Positions 36,720 through 49,052 of a DNA stretch of 64,000 nucleotides are shown piece by piece (positions within the stretch are counted from its first letter, which is position 1; the number at the start of each line of letters is the position of its first letter). The stretch lies in IMG/VR virus record IMGVR_UViG_3300046786_000304, positions 128,001 to 192,000 of that record. The stretch is one strand, 5' to 3'. This stretch comes from a virus (Duplodnaviria > Caudoviricetes). The notes under the pieces were generated by a model. That model was not told the origin of the DNA. It saw only the letters and a program-made list of their open reading frames with translations, and did no database searches. A program made the position numbers and the translations under genes.

Positions 36720-37571
36720 ATGACAACATATAAAGTATACAACCAATCATGTATAGAAGGCATGAAAGAGCATGTGGCAGATAATTCTGTAGATCTAATT
36801 TTTACAGATCCGCCATATGGTATCAAGGGAGATGAACTAGACGTTCATTATCACCGCGACGAATCCAAGGTAGTTCCAGGATATGTTGACGTACCGTTAG
36901 ATGAGTACGCCCAATTTAGTTTAGACTGGATTAAAGAATGCGAACGTGTTCTTCGTCCAGGCGGAAGTATCTATATTGTTAGCGGTTATACCAATTTACA
37001 TCATATTCTCAACGCATTACATTCTACTAAACTAGAAGAAATTAATCATATCATTGCCAAATATAGTTTTGGTGTTAGCACAAAAAATAAATTTGTATCA
37101 AGCCATTATCATGTTTTGTTTTGGCAAAAGCCAGACAAAAATAAACAGAAACGTACTTTCAATTCTAATTGGAAATTTACAGATCAAAAAGATAGCTATC
37201 ATGATCGTCTAACAGTACAAGACATGCCCAGGGATTATAAACCAGGAGAAGTCAAAAACAAAAATCAACTCAGCGAAGATTTCATAATGAAATTTATTAT
37301 GTATTCTAGTAACAGAGGTGATACTGTTTTAGATTGTTTTGGCGGCGGCCTTACTACAGGCAGAACAGCATTACGTTGGGGAAGAAATTTTATTGGGTTT
37401 GAATTGAATAATAATGCTTACAATGCATTTGTTCCAACTTTAGGAAGTGTGGAAGAATTAGAAGATCCAGATCCGATTAGTCCGGACTCAGAAGAACTTG
37501 CTAAACGTGAAAAGATGAGAGCAGGTTGGAAAAAAACAAGAGCAGAAAGAAAAAAAGGTAAAACAGAATAA
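36720..37571 (+). CDS. DNA N4-C/N6-A methyltransferase, beta class
   Basis: Motif IV DLIFTDPPYG N-terminal; motif I VLDCFGGG C-terminal; IGFE. Confidence 0.9.
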   Translation: MTTYKVYNQSCIEGMKEHVADNSVDLIFTDPPYGIKGDELDVHYHRDESKVVPGYVDVPLDEYAQFSLDWIKECERVLRPGGSIYIVSGYTNLHHILNALHSTKLEEINHIIAKYSFGVSTKNKFVSSHYHVLFWQKPDKNKQKRTFNSNWKFTDQKDSYHDRLTVQDMPRDYKPGEVKNKNQLSEDFIMKFIMYSSNRGDTVLDCFGGGLTTGRTALRWGRNFIGFELNNNAYNAFVPTLGSVEELEDPDPISPDSEELAKREKMRAGWKKTRAERKKGKTE

Positions 37572-40273: not shown

Positions 40274-41194
40274 ATGTTTCCATATATCGGCGGTAAAGCA
40301 CATCATGTTAAATGGCTAGATCCATTGTTCCCTGACACCTTTCCTACTTTTGTAGAAGTGTTTGGGGGTGCCGGATGGGTGTCAGTTAAAAGCACAAAAG
40401 TAGCACAGGCTACTACAAGAGTCTACAATGACTTTAATCCTTTGTTGGCAAATGTCTACGAGTGCTTTAGGCGTGATCCTGTCGCCGTATTAGCTAAGAT
40501 GAATTCTGTTACTAAAAGCGATCCAGTACTGTATTCTCAATACCAACAAGAGCTGTTCGGTACGTTAGACTGGACTAAAGTTACATTAGGTGATCTTGAC
40601 TTGTGTGTTAAGTATCTTTACTTACAGACACAAGTATTTGCGGGTACGCCACTAAGCACTAAGAATGTACCTTACTTTACAGAAACTAAGGCCGGTGGCA
40701 AGTATCCTAGCAAATATGATACACTTAAAAATAAATTAAACAAATCAGAAATCACAGATAGGCTTAAACAGATTACCACTGTTGAACAAATGGACTGTAT
40801 TGATTTGATTAAGAAATACGACAGTCCTGACACATTCTTTTATGTAGATCCTCCATACTACAATATGGAGTTTTACTATTCAAAAGATTTTCCAAAAGAA
40901 AAGCACGAAGAGTTAGCTAATACGTTGGCTAATATCCAAGGTAAGTTTGCTCTTAGCTATTATGACTTCGATGACTTACATAGACTTTATCCGGAAGACA
41001 AGTTTGTTTGGCATAAACAAGAAGTGTATCGCAGTGCAGCTACTAGAAGCGGCAATGATGCTAATTACAAAACAAAAAGTAAAGGCACAGAAATTCTAAT
41101 TATGAATTACAATCCTTCTCCTAATACCAAAGCTGTTACTGTAAAAAAAGAAAAAGCAGTTAAGACTACCTTTGATGAAGTGTTCCAGGCATAA
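40274..41194 (+). CDS. Dam-like N6-adenine DNA methyltransferase (alpha/D12 class)
   Basis: FPYIGGK, FVEVFGGAG, YNDFN, FYVDPPYY, LSYY, EILIMNY. Confidence 0.9.
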   Translation: MFPYIGGKAHHVKWLDPLFPDTFPTFVEVFGGAGWVSVKSTKVAQATTRVYNDFNPLLANVYECFRRDPVAVLAKMNSVTKSDPVLYSQYQQELFGTLDWTKVTLGDLDLCVKYLYLQTQVFAGTPLSTKNVPYFTETKAGGKYPSKYDTLKNKLNKSEITDRLKQITTVEQMDCIDLIKKYDSPDTFFYVDPPYYNMEFYYSKDFPKEKHEELANTLANIQGKFALSYYDFDDLHRLYPEDKFVWHKQEVYRSAATRSGNDANYKTKSKGTEILIMNYNPSPNTKAVTVKKEKAVKTTFDEVFQA

Positions 41195-41270: not shown

Positions 41271-42719
41271 ATGAATTGTACAATACAAATACGTGACGAA
41301 GTAAATATTAAAGTAGCAGGATTAGAAGTTAGTACAAGGCGCAAACTAGAAAAGCAATTTAAGTATTTCCAGCCATGGGCTTATCATAGCCCCGCTTATA
41401 AATTAGGCCGCTGGGATGGATGTGTTAGCTTTTTTAGTCTAGGTGGCGCAAGTTATTTTAACTTACTAGATCAAATCCTTCCTGTTATTGTTGATGAAGG
41501 TTATGCCATTGAAATAGATGATCAAAGATCTATACATAGTTTTAACTTTCCACAGGCAACAGAAGATACACATGGCCAAGTTATCTGGCCAGTAGGACAT
41601 CCTAAAGCAGGAGAACCGGTGACACTGAGAGATTATCAAGTCAGTGCTATTAACCAGTTTTTAGAAAACCCACAATGTATCCAAGAGATTGCCACAGGCG
41701 CAGGCAAAACTGTGCTTACTGCTACATTAAGTAAAGCAGTGGAACCTTATGGTAGAACATTGGTTATTGTTCCTAACAAAGACTTGGTTAAACAAACAGC
41801 AGAAGATTATGTCTTGCTAGGACTTGATACAGGTGTATACTTTGGAGATAAAAAAGAAATAGGCAAGACGCATACTATCTGTACTTGGCAAAGCCTTAAC
41901 AGTATGCAAAAGCGTTTCAAGGATGGAGAAAGTCCCGTTAGCTTAGAAGACTTCGCACAAGATGTAGTGGGTATTATCATCGACGAAGTTCACCAAGCCA
42001 AAGCAGATGTACTCAAACAATTACTTACAGGTCCATTTGCTCATGTTCCTATTCGTTGGGGATTAACAGGAACGATACCTAAAGAAGATTCGGACAAAGT
42101 GACCTTATTATCTTGTATAGGTCCAGTCATAAATAAGATTGCAGCCAAAGATCTGCAGGATTTAGGTGTGTTAGCCAACTGCCAAGTAAACATTATGCAG
42201 TTCCAAGATACCGTAGAGTATAAGAATTATCAAGAAGAGCTAACATACTTAACAACTAATAAAAATAGAATGGATACTGTCGCTAAGTTCATCGGGAATC
42301 TCAGCGAAACAGGCAATACACTTGTTCTAGTAGATAGAGTGAAGTGTGGAGAAATGCTAGTAGAGCGACTACCTGATAGTAGTTTTGTCAGTGGCGCGAT
42401 GAAAACTAATGACAGGAAAGAACAGTATGACGAAGTTAAAACAGCAACTAATAAAATCATTGTGGCTACTTATGGTGTGGCTGCTGTTGGTATTAATATA
42501 CCCCGTATTTTTAATCTTGTTCTTATTGAACCCGGTAAGAGCTTTGTTAGAGTTATCCAAAGTATCGGACGAGGTATTAGAAAAGCTGAAGACAAAGATC
42601 ACGTAGAGATCTGGGATATCACAAGTAGCGCAAAGTTTAGTAAACGACATCTTACTACACGAAAGAAATATTATGAGGAAGCGGGTTATCCTTATCAAGT
42701 ACAAAAGGTAAAATATTAA
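41271..42719 (+). CDS. uvsW: SF2 DNA helicase (UvsW-like)
   Basis: LRDYQ, ATGAGKT, IIDEVH, GLTGT, QSIGRGIR. Confidence 0.9.
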   Translation: MNCTIQIRDEVNIKVAGLEVSTRRKLEKQFKYFQPWAYHSPAYKLGRWDGCVSFFSLGGASYFNLLDQILPVIVDEGYAIEIDDQRSIHSFNFPQATEDTHGQVIWPVGHPKAGEPVTLRDYQVSAINQFLENPQCIQEIATGAGKTVLTATLSKAVEPYGRTLVIVPNKDLVKQTAEDYVLLGLDTGVYFGDKKEIGKTHTICTWQSLNSMQKRFKDGESPVSLEDFAQDVVGIIIDEVHQAKADVLKQLLTGPFAHVPIRWGLTGTIPKEDSDKVTLLSCIGPVINKIAAKDLQDLGVLANCQVNIMQFQDTVEYKNYQEELTYLTTNKNRMDTVAKFIGNLSETGNTLVLVDRVKCGEMLVERLPDSSFVSGAMKTNDRKEQYDEVKTATNKIIVATYGVAAVGINIPRIFNLVLIEPGKSFVRVIQSIGRGIRKAEDKDHVEIWDITSSAKFSKRHLTTRKKYYEEAGYPYQVQKVKY

Positions 42720-43219
42720 TGAACATACTAACAGTAGACAACAAAGCATTTGAGCTGAATCAATTACCAGAGGAGGTAGATGATCTGCGATATGCAGTAC
42801 TAGATTGGAACGATCCGAAAAATGTTGATTATCATTTTGTCCCGCTAATCTTTATGGAAACATTTCATGCTCCGGCCGCAGTATTGAAAATAGGTGAACA
42901 TGTTATTCAAGTTCCACTTGATTGGTATATTGTTATCGGTGAAAAAGATCACGGAGACCCTGAGATTGTTCCTATTATGAATATCAATGACCGAGGCTTT
43001 AGTGCGTTTACATTTAATCCTATCAGCAGTTTTAGATTAGACTTTAAACCACTGGAGATTATCAACGTGTTCCAAGATATTCGTTGGTATACTCCTAAAC
43101 TCAAACACGGACATATTCTAGCAGTTCCATTGGATAACAGCGAAAAACCACAATGTGCTTATTTTGTCAAAGAAACAAATAAACTTCCGGAAGTATTGTC
43201 CATTGAAAAGATGTATTAA
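42719..43219 (+). CDS. Hypothetical protein
   Basis: Coupled to uvsW; beta-rich. Confidence 0.7.
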   Translation: MNILTVDNKAFELNQLPEEVDDLRYAVLDWNDPKNVDYHFVPLIFMETFHAPAAVLKIGEHVIQVPLDWYIVIGEKDHGDPEIVPIMNINDRGFSAFTFNPISSFRLDFKPLEIINVFQDIRWYTPKLKHGHILAVPLDNSEKPQCAYFVKETNKLPEVLSIEKMY

Positions 43220-43236
43220 AGACTGTATAATATACT

Positions 43237-43725
43237 ATGGCAACTAAAGCACCAATGTTAGATATGTTCAAGAAAGTACTGCCTGCGGCAGATACTAGGA
43301 ACAAAGATTTTTATGAACGACTCAGTGATGAGGAAAAGAAAGGATTTAGTCCTTGGCTTATCCAACGTTATTTGAGTAGTGCAGAAAGTCCTACTGCGGA
43401 AATGATCGAACACTATCTTATTATGACCAATGATTTGGTTAATACAGATTATAGTACAATTAAAGATCATCCTGAGCTAATGTGGAAGTTGATGAGCATT
43501 GTCGGTGTAGGCAAGTCAATGAAGCATCCATATGTTGCTCCGGGCAAGGGCAAAAAGAAAAAAGGTAATGCGTTTAAGTTGTGGCTACATGAACAGTATC
43601 CTCATTTAAATGAACAAGAAGTAGAAGTATGGTTCGGTATGTTTACTAAAGAACAAGCCCGAGACATGTTGGAACAGTATCAAGTTAAAGACAAAGATGT
43701 TATCTCTGGTGCAAATGACTTATAA
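43237..43725 (+). CDS. Clamp loader small subunit (gp62-like)
   Basis: L.DEEKK.FSPWLI.RYLS, HP.L.WKL motifs. Confidence 0.6.
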   Translation: MATKAPMLDMFKKVLPAADTRNKDFYERLSDEEKKGFSPWLIQRYLSSAESPTAEMIEHYLIMTNDLVNTDYSTIKDHPELMWKLMSIVGVGKSMKHPYVAPGKGKKKKGNAFKLWLHEQYPHLNEQEVEVWFGMFTKEQARDMLEQYQVKDKDVISGANDL

Positions 43726-44395
43726 GTGTAGGTATTGTAATAAAGACTTTGTCAAAGAATCCACGTTAATCTCGCACATGTGTGAGAAAAAGCGCAGGAT
43801 GAATGCCAAAGATGAAAAACAAAATCGCATAGCTTATCAAAGTTGGTTAATCTATAGAAAAACTATGATTGCCAACGTTAAGAATGACAAGCCCTATGAT
43901 GACTTTATCAATGATAGGTATTATTTAGACTTCATGAAGTTGTCTAAATACATTATTGATTTAAGCTTGGATAAACCAGAAGAGTTTGTTAAATTTATTT
44001 TAAAAAACTCTGTGAGAATTGATAATTGGTGTAAAGATTCTGTCTATGAAACTTATGTCAAAGATAGAACATTCAAAGAAACTGTAGAACGAGCTATTGA
44101 ACGAAGTTTGTTAAATATGAAAGTGTGGTCCGAAAAGACTGGCTTTAATTGGGAAGAATATTTTGTTAAAGTCAATCCAGCAGACGCAGTACAAGACATT
44201 AGAATGGGTCGTATTAGTCCGTGGTGTACTTTTTCCACTGACCAAGGCAGCAGGTTAATTGACAGGCTTGAACCGGGACAGCAACAAGTATTAATAGATT
44301 ACTTAGATCCTAAAAAATGGCGTGTTAAGTTAAAACGAGATCCAAAAGAACCTGAATGGGTACAAGAAATTTTTAATAAGGCGGGAATACTATGA
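43715..44395 (+). CDS. Zinc-finger-containing hypothetical protein
   Basis: YKCRYCNKDF.KE.TL.SHMC; start revised from 43697. Confidence 0.7.
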   Translation: MTYKCRYCNKDFVKESTLISHMCEKKRRMNAKDEKQNRIAYQSWLIYRKTMIANVKNDKPYDDFINDRYYLDFMKLSKYIIDLSLDKPEEFVKFILKNSVRIDNWCKDSVYETYVKDRTFKETVERAIERSLLNMKVWSEKTGFNWEEYFVKVNPADAVQDIRMGRISPWCTFSTDQGSRLIDRLEPGQQQVLIDYLDPKKWRVKLKRDPKEPEWVQEIFNKAGIL

Positions 44396-44640
44396 ATCAG
44401 TACAGTGAAAAAAGAAGAGTTCCTAGACTCTTACAAAGCCAGCAATCTACTAAGGCTAGTTTTCAAATGCTCAATGGCGTAGCAGAATTTACCATAGACG
44501 GTGAACGTGTAAGTATGCCCACAGCAGAAGCGTTCCAACGTTTATTAAAAAAAGTTGCCGTACTTGAACAGAGACTAGCAGTCACTGATAACAAAGCCGC
44601 TACTGCATCTAGAGTGGCAAGGGCTAAGAATGACAGATAA
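44392..44640 (+). CDS. Hypothetical protein
   Basis: Coupled ORF. Confidence 0.6.
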   Translation: MNQYSEKRRVPRLLQSQQSTKASFQMLNGVAEFTIDGERVSMPTAEAFQRLLKKVAVLEQRLAVTDNKAATASRVARAKNDR

Positions 44641-44857
44641 AGATACTCAGGTCGTTGAAGTTTATAGAGAAACTTTAAACTTGATTGACAAACTAGTTGC
44701 TGATCATGACCCACTTGTAATAGCAGGAGTAATGATGGCACAGTCTCTTAGTTTATATAGAAGTACTCTAAGTGAAGATGACTATTCAAGTGTAGTAACA
44801 TCTATCTTAGAAAAGAAAGATAAAATTTATACATTTAACTCGGGGAATTTACATTGA
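44630..44857 (+). CDS. Hypothetical protein
   Basis: Coupled ORF. Confidence 0.6.
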   Translation: MTDKDTQVVEVYRETLNLIDKLVADHDPLVIAGVMMAQSLSLYRSTLSEDDYSSVVTSILEKKDKIYTFNSGNLH

Positions 44858-45417
44858 GCTTTGACGTAGACATTGACTTTGCAGATAGAGAGCAAGTATT
44901 AAAATTACTTGACCATACTCCTGCGATGATTAAAGATGGCACAAAAGAAAAGAAACATAACACAGGTGTTTACTTTCATAATGCGCCAGTAAATCCATTC
45001 ACAGGATTATCTACAGTAGATTATAAAAGTGCTGAAGACTTGGGTTGGTTTAAAATTGACTTGCTGAATGTTGGTATCTACAATGATTTCGACAGTAATG
45101 AACAAATAGATGATTTATTGTCCAAGGAACCAATGTGGGAGTTGCTAGAACATAAAGAAGTTATACAGCAATTATTCCATATACATAATCACAGCGACAC
45201 CGTTATTAGAATGAAGCCAAGAAGCATTGAACAACTTGCCATGGTGTTGGCAGTTATCCGTCCAGGTAAGAAGCATTTAATAGGTAGAAGTTGGAATGAG
45301 ATTGAGCAAGAAGTATGGACTAAAACTGAGGATGTTTACAGTTTCAAAAAGAGTCATGCTATTGGTTATGCGGCAGCTATTGTGTTACAGCTTAATCAAA
45401 TGAGTTATAGTTTTTGA
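44854..45417 (+). CDS. Miniature DnaE (family C polymerase) catalytic-core protein
   Basis: FDVDIDF, HNTGVYF, GWFKIDLLNV, LAVIRPG, YSFKKSHAIGY match the DnaE motifs PDxDxDF, HAxGVVI, KxDxLGL, LxRPG, FNKSHAxxY; TTG start. Confidence 0.8.
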   Translation: MSFDVDIDFADREQVLKLLDHTPAMIKDGTKEKKHNTGVYFHNAPVNPFTGLSTVDYKSAEDLGWFKIDLLNVGIYNDFDSNEQIDDLLSKEPMWELLEHKEVIQQLFHIHNHSDTVIRMKPRSIEQLAMVLAVIRPGKKHLIGRSWNEIEQEVWTKTEDVYSFKKSHAIGYAAAIVLQLNQMSYSF

Positions 45418-45773
45418 ACTAATTGTATCTGACGACGTTTAATACGTTTTGTGATGATGTTTTGAAGACTAACAGCTTCGCCGTGTAATATATCAAAGTC
45501 CTTGACATTATAGGTGCGTAAACTATAGCTAAACTTTTTAAATTTAGGCCCTATAACTAAGTTTATGGGCAGACTGCGATTACTTTGCCACCACCATTCT
45601 TCTCCTAATTCTAAGAACTCTGCTTTATCTTCGGTACAAGTAAGCACATTATAAACATAAATGCTGGCCAGAGTACTGGTATAATTTTGAATAATCCCTA
45701 GAATCTCTTCTTCGCCGCAACGGCACAAGCTTAAGAAGGGAAACTTATCTAATATTTCTTTATGATCTGCCAT
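45405..45773 (-). CDS. Hypothetical protein (late, divergent)
   Basis: TAAATA 6 nt upstream on the minus strand. Confidence 0.7.
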   Translation of the reverse strand: MADHKEILDKFPFLSLCRCGEEEILGIIQNYTSTLASIYVYNVLTCTEDKAEFLELGEEWWWQSNRSLPINLVIGPKFKKFSYSLRTYNVKDFDILHGEAVSLQNIITKRIKRRQIQLVQKL

Positions 45774-46620: not shown

Positions 46621-47592
46621 ATGATGGCCTTACAAACATTACTTAGAAGCAAAATACACGGACATGCTAGCCCTAAAGGCTGGACAAGTTTTAATTGTCC
46701 CATGTGTGTTGTCAATGGACAAGGCCGAGCAGATACAAAGCGCAGAGGCGGGATATTGTTTAGTCCCGACGGTAGTGTAGCTTACCAATGTTTTAATTGC
46801 CAATATAAAACAGGCTGGAGTCCTGGTTGGACCTTGGGTTTCAAGATGCGTAAGCTATTACGCCAACTAGGATTCGATGAAGCCGAAGTTCAACGTTTAA
46901 CATTAGAATTACTAAGCCAAGCAGACGCAGAGCTACTAGTTAAAAAAGAAGCAGAACCAGTATGGACTCCGGACTGGCCAGAGTTTAACTTCGAGTTCGA
47001 AGTTAAAGAATTAGAAGACCCTGCAAAGATAGCATACTTACAAGATAGACAAATATATGATTTAGCTACTTGGTTAGAAACAAATGACGGCTATGCCGGA
47101 TTAAACAATAGAGTTATATTGCCTTTCACTTATCAAAATAAGATTGTAGGTTTTCAAAGTAGATATGTAGGCCAAGTACCTCCTAAGCTAGCCAAGTATT
47201 TTAAGAAGAGTCCCGCAAACTATGTATACGGATTAGATAATCAACGAGATAAAAGAGAATACGTCATTGTCACAGAAGGTGAGTTTGATGCGCTACTAAC
47301 CAGTGGAGTTGCTTTGGGTAGTAACAATCTCAGTGAACGTCAAGCACAACTGATAGAAGACTTAAATATAGAACCGATACTACTACCCGACGCTGACAAG
47401 CCGGGTGGAGAACTAGTAGAGCGTGCCGCAGACTATGGATGGAGCGTTAGTTTTCCTGAATGGGAAGATTGTAAAGACGTTGGAGACGCAGTAATGAAAT
47501 ATGGCAGACTATTTGCAGTATACAGCATACTACAAGCCGCAGAACATAGTCCAACAAAAATTAGATTAATGGGAAAGAGATATTGCAGATGA
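46621..47592 (+). CDS. gp61: DNA primase (gp61-like)
   Basis: Zn-binding FNCPMC..YQCFNC; TOPRIM VTEGEFDA, PDADKPG, KDVGDA. Confidence 0.85.
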   Translation: MMALQTLLRSKIHGHASPKGWTSFNCPMCVVNGQGRADTKRRGGILFSPDGSVAYQCFNCQYKTGWSPGWTLGFKMRKLLRQLGFDEAEVQRLTLELLSQADAELLVKKEAEPVWTPDWPEFNFEFEVKELEDPAKIAYLQDRQIYDLATWLETNDGYAGLNNRVILPFTYQNKIVGFQSRYVGQVPPKLAKYFKKSPANYVYGLDNQRDKREYVIVTEGEFDALLTSGVALGSNNLSERQAQLIEDLNIEPILLPDADKPGGELVERAADYGWSVSFPEWEDCKDVGDAVMKYGRLFAVYSILQAAEHSPTKIRLMGKRYCR

Positions 47593-49052
47593 AAGATGAA
47601 ATTAAAACATACAGTACAAAAGAACAAAAATTATATTTAGAAATTTTAATTGCTGATCCAGAATTGGCAGCAAGGTCTAGAAATATTTTAGATCCCGAAT
47701 ACTTTGACAGGAACATGCGGCAAGCGGCAGAGTTCATTAAAGATTACTTAGACAAATATGACAATGTTCCTACGACTACGCAAATTGAAGCAACAACTGG
47801 TATAAGTCTAGAAGCATTTAGCACAGACGCAGTACAGCCACAAAAAGAATGGTTCTTGGACGAGTTTGAACAGTTTGCTAGACACAAGGCATTGGATCGT
47901 GCTATTCTAAAAAGTGTTGACTTGCTGGACAAGAAAAGATATGGCGAAGTTGAACGACTTATTAAAGAAGCAAGTACAGTAGGATTGCCCAAGACCTTTG
48001 GTACAGATTATTTTGCAGATCCTAGGGGTCGACTCGAAGCATTGAAAAGTGCTAATGGACAAGTTAGTACAGGATGGAAAAGTATTGATAACAAACTGTA
48101 TGGCGGATTTAACAGAGGCGAACTTAATATTTTTGCGGCACCCAGTGGCGGCGGTAAAAGTTTGTTTTTACAAAACCTTGCTATACATTGGGCGCAACAA
48201 GGACTAAATGGCGTTTATTTTAGTTTGGAACTGGCAGAAGGTCTATGTAGTAAACGAATTGACAGTATGATAACCGGAGTCCCATCCACAGACATTTATA
48301 AAAATCTAGACGACGTCGATTTGAAAGTTAGGATGATAGGAAAGAAATCCGGACGACTACAAATTGTTCAACTAACATCTGGTATAACTGTAAATGATTT
48401 AAAATCTTGGATCAAAGAGTTTCAGATATTCTCTGGAGCAAAAGTAGACTATGTAATTGTTGACTATTTAGACTTGATGCATCCTGTTAGTGTTAAAGTC
48501 AGTGCTGAGAATTTGTTTATTAAAGACAAATATGTGTCAGAAGAACTACGGGCTTTGGCCACACAAGGGCAGTATCTGTTTGCCACAGCCAGTCAGTTGA
48601 ATCGCGGCGCTGTAGAAAGTGTTGAATTTGATCATAGTCATATTAGTGGCGGCTTATCTAAGATTCAAACAGCTGACAATGTTATTGGTATCTTTAACAG
48701 TAATACTATGCGTGAACGTGGTAGAGTTCAAGTTCAATTTATGAAAACTCGTAGTAGTAGTGCTGTAGGTTCAAAAGTTGAATTAGAGTTTAATACAAGT
48801 ACTTTACATATTACAGACTTAGATGAAGACAGCGCAGATGCTCCTACTACAATAGATGTAATACACGACAAACTAAAACGTCAAAGTCAAGTAGAAGGAA
48901 CAAGTAATACAACACCCAGTGTCGGTTGGGAAAGAGCTACACCCAAAGAAGGTTTTAGTTTAGAGACACCTCAAAAACAACAAGAGCCCAAAATCCCAAT
49001 TAGGACCATGGACTCTAGTAATAAGTTAGCTAATATTCTTAAAAAGGTTTAA
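47583..49052 (+). CDS. gp41: Replicative DnaB-like helicase
   Basis: STGW..ID..L.GG..RGEL, APSGGGKS, YFSLE, VIVDYLD, ASQLNR, KIQTAD, KTR. Confidence 0.92.
   Translation: MQMKDEIKTYSTKEQKLYLEILIADPELAARSRNILDPEYFDRNMRQAAEFIKDYLDKYDNVPTTTQIEATTGISLEAFSTDAVQPQKEWFLDEFEQFARHKALDRAILKSVDLLDKKRYGEVERLIKEASTVGLPKTFGTDYFADPRGRLEALKSANGQVSTGWKSIDNKLYGGFNRGELNIFAAPSGGGKSLFLQNLAIHWAQQGLNGVYFSLELAEGLCSKRIDSMITGVPSTDIYKNLDDVDLKVRMIGKKSGRLQIVQLTSGITVNDLKSWIKEFQIFSGAKVDYVIVDYLDLMHPVSVKVSAENLFIKDKYVSEELRALATQGQYLFATASQLNRGAVESVEFDHSHISGGLSKIQTADNVIGIFNSNTMRERGRVQVQFMKTRSSSAVGSKVELEFNTSTLHITDLDEDSADAPTTIDVIHDKLKRQSQVEGTSNTTPSVGWERATPKEGFSLETPQKQQEPKIPIRTMDSSNKLANILKKV

Follow-up and report, generated by a model that had tools for sequence, protein, structure and literature searches.

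A 187-aa phage protein as the probable C-terminal half of a split minimal Pol III alpha polymerase

What kind of enzyme, if any, can a protein of 187 amino acids (aa) be when it carries the active-site motifs of DnaE, the alpha subunit of DNA polymerase III (Pol III)? The question is raised by an open reading frame (ORF) in a 64,000-nucleotide (nt) stretch of DNA from an uncultured phage (Caudoviricetes), positions 128,001 to 192,000 of the IMG/VR record IMGVR_UViG_3300046786_000304, here called the window. Canonical members of the DnaE/PolC family, such as the DnaE proteins of Escherichia coli (2HNH), Thermus aquaticus (3E0D) and Mycobacterium tuberculosis (5LEW) and a PolC (3F2C), are single chains of approximately 1100–1400 aa. 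An earlier note, made from the sequence of the window, had taken the ORF for a self-contained miniature polymerase core. We conclude, with a probability of roughly 0.85, that it is the C-terminal half (C-half) of a two-chain enzyme in which a single palm active site is rebuilt.

A gene that begins at the catalytic aspartates

The ORF consists of 187 codons without interruption, from a TTG at 44854 to a TGA at 45415–45417 (Table 1). As its frame is open only from 44839 and no other start codon precedes the DxD motif, the TTG is the start. It shares bases with the TGA stop codon of the preceding 75-aa ORF (TTGA), and the gene is the last in a chain of four overlapping genes that encode proteins of 232, 82, 75 and 187 aa. 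Only three residues stand before the first aspartate, D4. The motifs that had been read from the translation are all present and in the order first given, namely D4-V-D6-I-D8 (within FDVDIDF), H35-N-T-G38-V, K67-I-D69-L-L, R136-P137-G138 and F164-K-K-S-H168-A.

The 187-aa protein almost certainly belongs to the DnaE/Pol III alpha family. The family phrog_11778, which is annotated as 'DNA polymerase', matches it with an E-value of 2.5e-66, residues 3–184 aligning with profile positions 7–192 of 197. When the single sequence was used to query the Protein Data Bank (PDB), only chance matches were returned, and a profile search was needed to expose the kinship; with a profile of 86 homologues, the PDB matches were Pol III alpha chains only (E 9e-6). 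In the profile alignment, residues 54–139 fall on residues 539–641 of E. coli alpha, with K67-x-D69 on K553-F-D555 and RPG on 639–641, and residues 151–179 fall on 740–769, with FKKSHA on FNKSHS (near 754–760). The catalytic aspartate triad is common to both proteins (D4, D6 and D69 in the ORF; D401, D403 and D555 in E. coli alpha). The AlphaFold model of the ORF has a predicted local distance difference test (pLDDT) value of 95.9 and a predicted template modelling (pTM) score of 0.88, and every significant Foldseek match to it is a Pol III alpha. Together, the PHROG match, the profile search and the structural comparison bear out the DnaE palm-and-fingers origin that had been proposed from the motifs.

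What the protein has retained is a small part of a DnaE. Its start is equivalent to residue 399 of E. coli alpha, and 180–185 of its residues span 381 residues of that protein. Approximately 100 fingers residues are missing between RPG and KSH, and there is no counterpart of anything past residue 779. By the published domain limits of E. coli alpha, the thumb would correspond to no more than a short hairpin that joins the DxD strand to HxxG. As the protein begins at DxD it has no PHP domain; a Pfam search of the 187 aa identified neither PHP nor any other domain, DNA_pol3_finger appearing only below threshold. It also differs from DnaE and PolC in having no clamp-binding motif, OB fold or tau-binding end. 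The length of 187 aa and the end before residue 779 thus confirm the loss of the PHP, thumb, clamp-binding and OB parts that had been noted earlier. The idea of a self-contained core fares differently. Whereas canonical DnaE and PolC hold the whole palm, with its GRGS loop, in one chain, relatives of the ORF have the equivalent of residues 278–393 on another protein, and the chain studied here begins at the DxD strand. With no GRGS part of the palm, it cannot form a beta-nucleotidyltransferase active site alone.

Homologues were found in 96 cultured jumbo phages, including PA5oct-like phages, RaK2, 121Q-like phages, Atu_ph07, XacN1 and Phosso, and the C-half family comprises 4266 clusters when grouped at 90% identity, with 416 representatives remaining at 50%. 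The homologues are nearly always 185–215 aa long and likewise begin at the DxD strand. The ORF is at most 54–56% identical to any copy from a cultured phage or any representative of the 50% clusters. Across the 86 homologues (32–56% identical to the ORF), D4, D6, K67, D69 and P137 are invariant, and D8, H35, G38, R136, K165 and H168 are conserved in 92–99%.

None of 29 closer relatives (77–88% protein identity) contains a stop codon. Where the ratio of non-synonymous to synonymous substitution (dN/dS) could be computed it was 0.03–0.09, with a proportion of non-synonymous differences (pN) of 0.07–0.14 and synonymous sites near saturation. The ORF is therefore under strong purifying selection and is no decaying fragment, as the earlier note had also held. 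Its small size and the loss of most DnaE domains could suggest a remnant that has lost its activity, or a decoy, an option that had been raised before, which would bind factors of the host replisome or of defence and catalyse nothing. However, conservation is centred on catalytic and nucleotide-binding residues, some of them invariant, which is unlike what would be expected of a binding decoy, and the length is constant in thousands of homologues. On conservation and dN/dS we reject both the 'decaying fragment' and the 'decoy' readings as extremely improbable.

The partner half

A split enzyme of this kind has been described before. Iyer et al. (2021, Viruses 13:63, PMC7824862, section 3.4.1) predicted from sequence a split minimal Pol III alpha in jumbo phages of group 2.2, which are T4-type phages like RaK2, PA5oct and 121Q. 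The enzyme consists of an N-terminal protein that binds nucleoside triphosphates (NTPs) and a C-terminal protein that binds Mg2+ and template; the two genes lie far apart and are found alongside a family-B polymerase, and the authors suggested that the enzyme might synthesize one of the strands or serve in repair. The ORF agrees with this family (PHROG 11778, with PHROG 11127 as the N-terminal unit; PMC7824862) in family membership, size, motifs and split point. The novelty that the earlier note implied is thereby lost, as the split polymerase was already known from the same phage group (PMC7824862).

In a six-frame search, an N-terminal half (N-half) scoring above the curated PF07733 cut-off was found in 5/5 cultured phages, 33 to approximately 180 kb from the C-half. 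These ORFs encode 169–177 aa and end in ...WGVGRGSSVASY.LFLIG.H.VDS.KY.LD..EFLK, with a GRGS motif of the GVGRGSSVASY type. N-halves are also present in three IMG/VR contigs (G004, G006 and G007), and in G006 and G007 both halves are on the one contig. The N-unit, PHROG 11127, forms 1698 clusters at 90% identity and supplies the equivalent of E. coli alpha 278–393, GRGS loop included. Counts of the two halves by host genus are near-equal in cultured phages: 34/34 for Escherichia, 11/11 for Pseudomonas, 8/8 each for Erwinia and Salmonella, 4/4 each for Xanthomonas and Yersinia, and 11/10 for Klebsiella. The relatives always encode the GRGS part, either as a second gene or fused upstream of the C-unit.

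Three natural single-chain fusions (P0203, P0391 and P0392) of 375–376 aa were found, each made up of phrog_11127 and phrog_11778. Two of them are 78–81% identical to the third, which served as the query, and the copies derive from different metagenomic assemblies in ENA and Logan. The linker between the two units is approximately 10 residues, the PF07733 match crosses the junction, and the C-terminal 185 residues match phrog_11778 (E 3.7e-47). In locus L097 the fused gene adjoins the same convergent 122-aa gene as the C-half does. Whereas both units are in one chain in the fusions, the C-unit stands alone in the phage studied here. The fused gene is preceded by a 77-aa ORF, which was considered as a counterpart of the 75-aa ORF and rejected, as the two have no homology.

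A model of the complex of the 187-aa protein with the N-unit from G004 had a score of 0.88, a level reached by 58/80 solved complexes and 2/110 mismatched pairs; the best of three controls scored 0.01. At least 95% of the contacts are common to the runs, and the partner has a pLDDT of 88. At the modelled interface, N-unit residues 131–134, in the strand before GRGS, pair with residues 7–9 of the DxD strand, and N-unit residues 154–161 contact the KSH helix.

Half of a split polymerase had been one of several options in the earlier note, and it is the one that the N-halves in relatives, their co-occurrence with C-halves, the fusions and the complex model support. The 187-aa unit would contribute the second half of a beta-nucleotidyltransferase palm, with D4, D6 and D69 as putative metal ligands, and cut-down fingers with RPG and KSH. 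An N-terminal unit of approximately 170 aa, from a separate gene, would contribute the first half of the palm with the GRGS loop that binds the triphosphate. The two chains would associate non-covalently to restore one active site, the strand before GRGS pairing, in the model, with the DxD strand. The enzyme so formed may be a low-processivity, non-proofreading accessory DNA polymerase that works beside the family-B replicase to fill gaps, repair DNA or extend primers. If the enzyme does have two chains, template-directed DNA synthesis in such an accessory role is the function towards which we lean.

All three catalytic aspartates are in one chain, and a partner gene was not found on the phage's own contig, both of which would fit a mini polymerase or nucleotidyltransferase that is self-sufficient as a single chain. 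Nevertheless, this chain has neither the GRGS loop nor the helices that correspond to E. coli alpha 278–393, which its relatives encode separately or fused, and the modelled interface buries the DxD strand against a strand of the N-half. We consider a stand-alone enzyme very improbable.

Several points weigh against a two-chain polymerase. The contig from which the window comes (G000) is a 233-kb linear fragment, estimated to be approximately 65% complete, and no N-half was detected on it with PF07733, with phrog_11127, by tblastn with four N-halves or with a regular expression for GRGS-like motifs. The high score of the complex may arise because the model remembers DnaE structures, in which the parts form one chain, and the N-unit used was a stand-in from G004, a contig whose C-half is 59% identical to the ORF; such a model is a sign of likeness and not of binding. 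The literature searched held no biochemical test or measured activity of any family member. Finally, templated synthesis is an assumption for an enzyme without thumb, clamp-binding, OB and proofreading parts.

The complementary DnaE part that the earlier note had suggested looking for was thus found in relatives, both cultured phages and IMG/VR contigs, and not on the phage's own contig, and this is one respect in which the phage differs from the family described by Iyer et al. (PMC7824862). As only about 65% of the genome is available, the absence neither shows nor excludes loss. A search of the 233-kb contig with phrog_405 matched the C-half only. The N-half could not be placed by synteny with G004, as the 25-kb N-half block of G004 is almost without counterpart in G000 and the gene order differs. 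When IMG/VR contigs with an N-half were examined for overlap with G000, none of 80 loci (0/80) was a close relative. Among five fragmentary IMG/VR relatives (21–60% complete), four had no N-half detectable with PF07733, an absence that carries no information. We infer from the pattern in the family that this phage probably has an N-half.

The N-half loci share with G000 only a cytidylyltransferase-like and a MazG-like pyrophosphohydrolase gene. Their products are 60–84% identical to those of genes at most 1–2 kb from the N-half in many relatives. In G000 the two genes are outside the window, approximately 90 kb apart, with neither of them near a polymerase half. A further conserved protein of 113–153 aa (phrog_14844), with '...NARGD...' at its N-terminus, is encoded after the N-half in RaK2, PAC2, Phosso and G004, and tblastn detected no counterpart of it on the 233-kb contig.

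Genomic neighbourhood

The C-half gene lies within a replication and recombination block (Table 1). The replisome context that had been proposed for it is confirmed, with a UvsW-type helicase gene upstream and genes for a gp61-type primase and a DnaB-type helicase downstream, and a search for a family-B polymerase was positive; the set is that of a jumbo phage of the group 2.2 type. Phosso, PAC2 and Atu_ph07 share the order of the UvsW gene, the 166- and 162-aa genes, the gene for the 232-aa C2H2 zinc-finger protein, small variable ORFs, the C-half and the convergent 122-aa gene. The same order from UvsW to the 122-aa gene is kept in RaK2, G004 and the close relative L096, and in the stretches available from G006 and G007 it is seen from the 162-aa gene onward. 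In its genomic company, which includes a family-B polymerase, UvsW, a DnaG-type primase, a DnaB helicase and the conserved neighbours, the ORF resembles the copies in RaK2, PA5oct-like phages, Atu_ph07 and Phosso.

Table 1. Positions of the C-half gene, its neighbours and related features. Positions are those of the window unless a contig (G) or locus (L) is named.
Feature	Position	Strand	Match or remark
UvsW-type helicase, head of the conserved block	41271–42719	+	phrog_16, E 8.5e-75; syntenic gene annotated as UvsW in PAC2 and RaK2
166-aa conserved neighbour, directly after UvsW	42719–43219	+	phrog_11279
162-aa conserved neighbour	43237–43725	+	phrog_11758
232-aa C2H2 zinc-finger protein	43697–44395	+	phrog_11058; directly upstream of the C-half in 8 other phages/contigs
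82-aa ORF in the overlapping chain	44392–44640	+	overlaps both neighbours; homologue only in the closest relative, L096
75-aa ORF	44630–44857	+	stop overlaps TTG start of the C-half; no family match
Shine–Dalgarno-like GGGGA	44842–44846	+	7 nt 5' of the TTG start; read from the sequence
C-terminal unit of putative split minimal Pol III alpha (catalytic-aspartate, Mg2+- and template-binding), 187 aa	44854–45417	+	TTG start
122-aa convergent gene	45405–45773	-	phrog_11637; overlaps the C-half by 13 nt at its 3' end; arranged likewise in Phosso, PAC2, Atu_ph07 and RaK2
DnaG/gp61-type primase	46621–47592	+	phrog_47, E 2.5e-28
DnaB/gp41-type replicative helicase	47583–49052	+	phrog_19, E 1.1e-73
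Family-B polymerase	G000:3129–4343		PF00136, E 1.7e-36; same contig, outside the window
DNA methyltransferase	36720–37571	+	
DNA methyltransferase	40274–41194	+	
Cytidylyltransferase-like gene	G000:14636–15124		
MazG-like pyrophosphohydrolase gene	G000:104432–104851		
Homologue of the 75-aa ORF	L113:12052–12261		41% identity, E 5e-19
phrog_14844 protein after the N-half	L095:1130–1522	-	
phrog_14844 protein after the N-half	L012:1738–2079		
phrog_14844 protein after the N-half	L014:1802–2161		
phrog_14844 protein after the N-half	L010:1761–2222		
Fused N- and C-unit gene	L097:1066–2193		

Four of the neighbours (phrog_11279, phrog_11758, phrog_11058 and phrog_11637) keep their order in phages with hosts from Pseudomonas to Sinorhizobium, and their products are candidates for accessory proteins that act with the mini polymerase or with UvsW. 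A homologue of the 75-aa ORF, which is translationally coupled to the C-half in the window, lies approximately 1.5 kb downstream of the N-half in G006, where the C-half is approximately 163 kb from it. A small protein whose gene accompanies the C-half in one genome and the N-half in another may have a functional tie to the enzyme. Just upstream of the replication block are two genes for DNA methyltransferases (phrog_67 and phrog_56).

Possible functions and meaning

The neighbourhood bears on what a two-chain enzyme would do. In DnaE, the thumb, fingers and later parts hold the primer-template duplex and give processivity. The thumb, approximately 100 fingers residues and everything past residue 779 are missing here, and the palm fold also occurs in nucleotidyltransferases that are not polymerases. 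The heterodimer could accordingly be imagined as a non-templated nucleotidyltransferase built on this palm, for example a terminal transferase, an enzyme that modifies primers or ends, or one that makes a nucleotide signal. Against this, the RPG and KSH fingers motifs, which line the site of the incoming nucleotide and the template in the DnaE ternary complex, are conserved as strongly as the catalytic aspartates, and the gene is part of a deeply conserved replication and recombination block that extends from UvsW to the primase and helicase. We regard an untemplated enzyme as unlikely, and an accessory DNA polymerase as the better account.

A more specific role can be suggested by analogy with Bacillus, where DnaE extends primers for PolC. 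The phage enzyme might be a dedicated second polymerase at the fork that extends the RNA primers made by the primase before they are handed to the family-B polymerase, with the neighbouring proteins (the C2H2 232-aa protein and the 166-, 162- and 122-aa proteins) replacing the functions of the thumb and clamp. We put this forward tentatively and think it doubtful. Were it true, no single-chain polymerase of the C family smaller than the rare 375-aa fusion would be known. A preprint of October 2026 on a 'split DNA polymerase' of chimalliviruses appears, from its abstract, to concern nucleus-forming group 1 phages and a divergent family-B enzyme, not this family.

The ORF is a further member of a family known from computation. 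It introduces no new principle; what it contributes is a further divergent lineage, taken from an uncultured phage, in which the conserved neighbourhood is kept. The C-half family is widespread, with thousands of metagenomic clusters, and is found in all RaK2-, 121Q- and PA5oct-type jumbo phages, some of which are candidates for phage therapy. Its constant company with a family-B replicase suggests a replisome with two polymerases or a dedicated repair enzyme. For an initial biochemical assay, the independent fused forms would be the simplest proteins to start from. The family as a whole can be read as an experiment by nature on how far a C-family polymerase can be reduced, and on whether an active site can be assembled from two polypeptides cut inside the palm.
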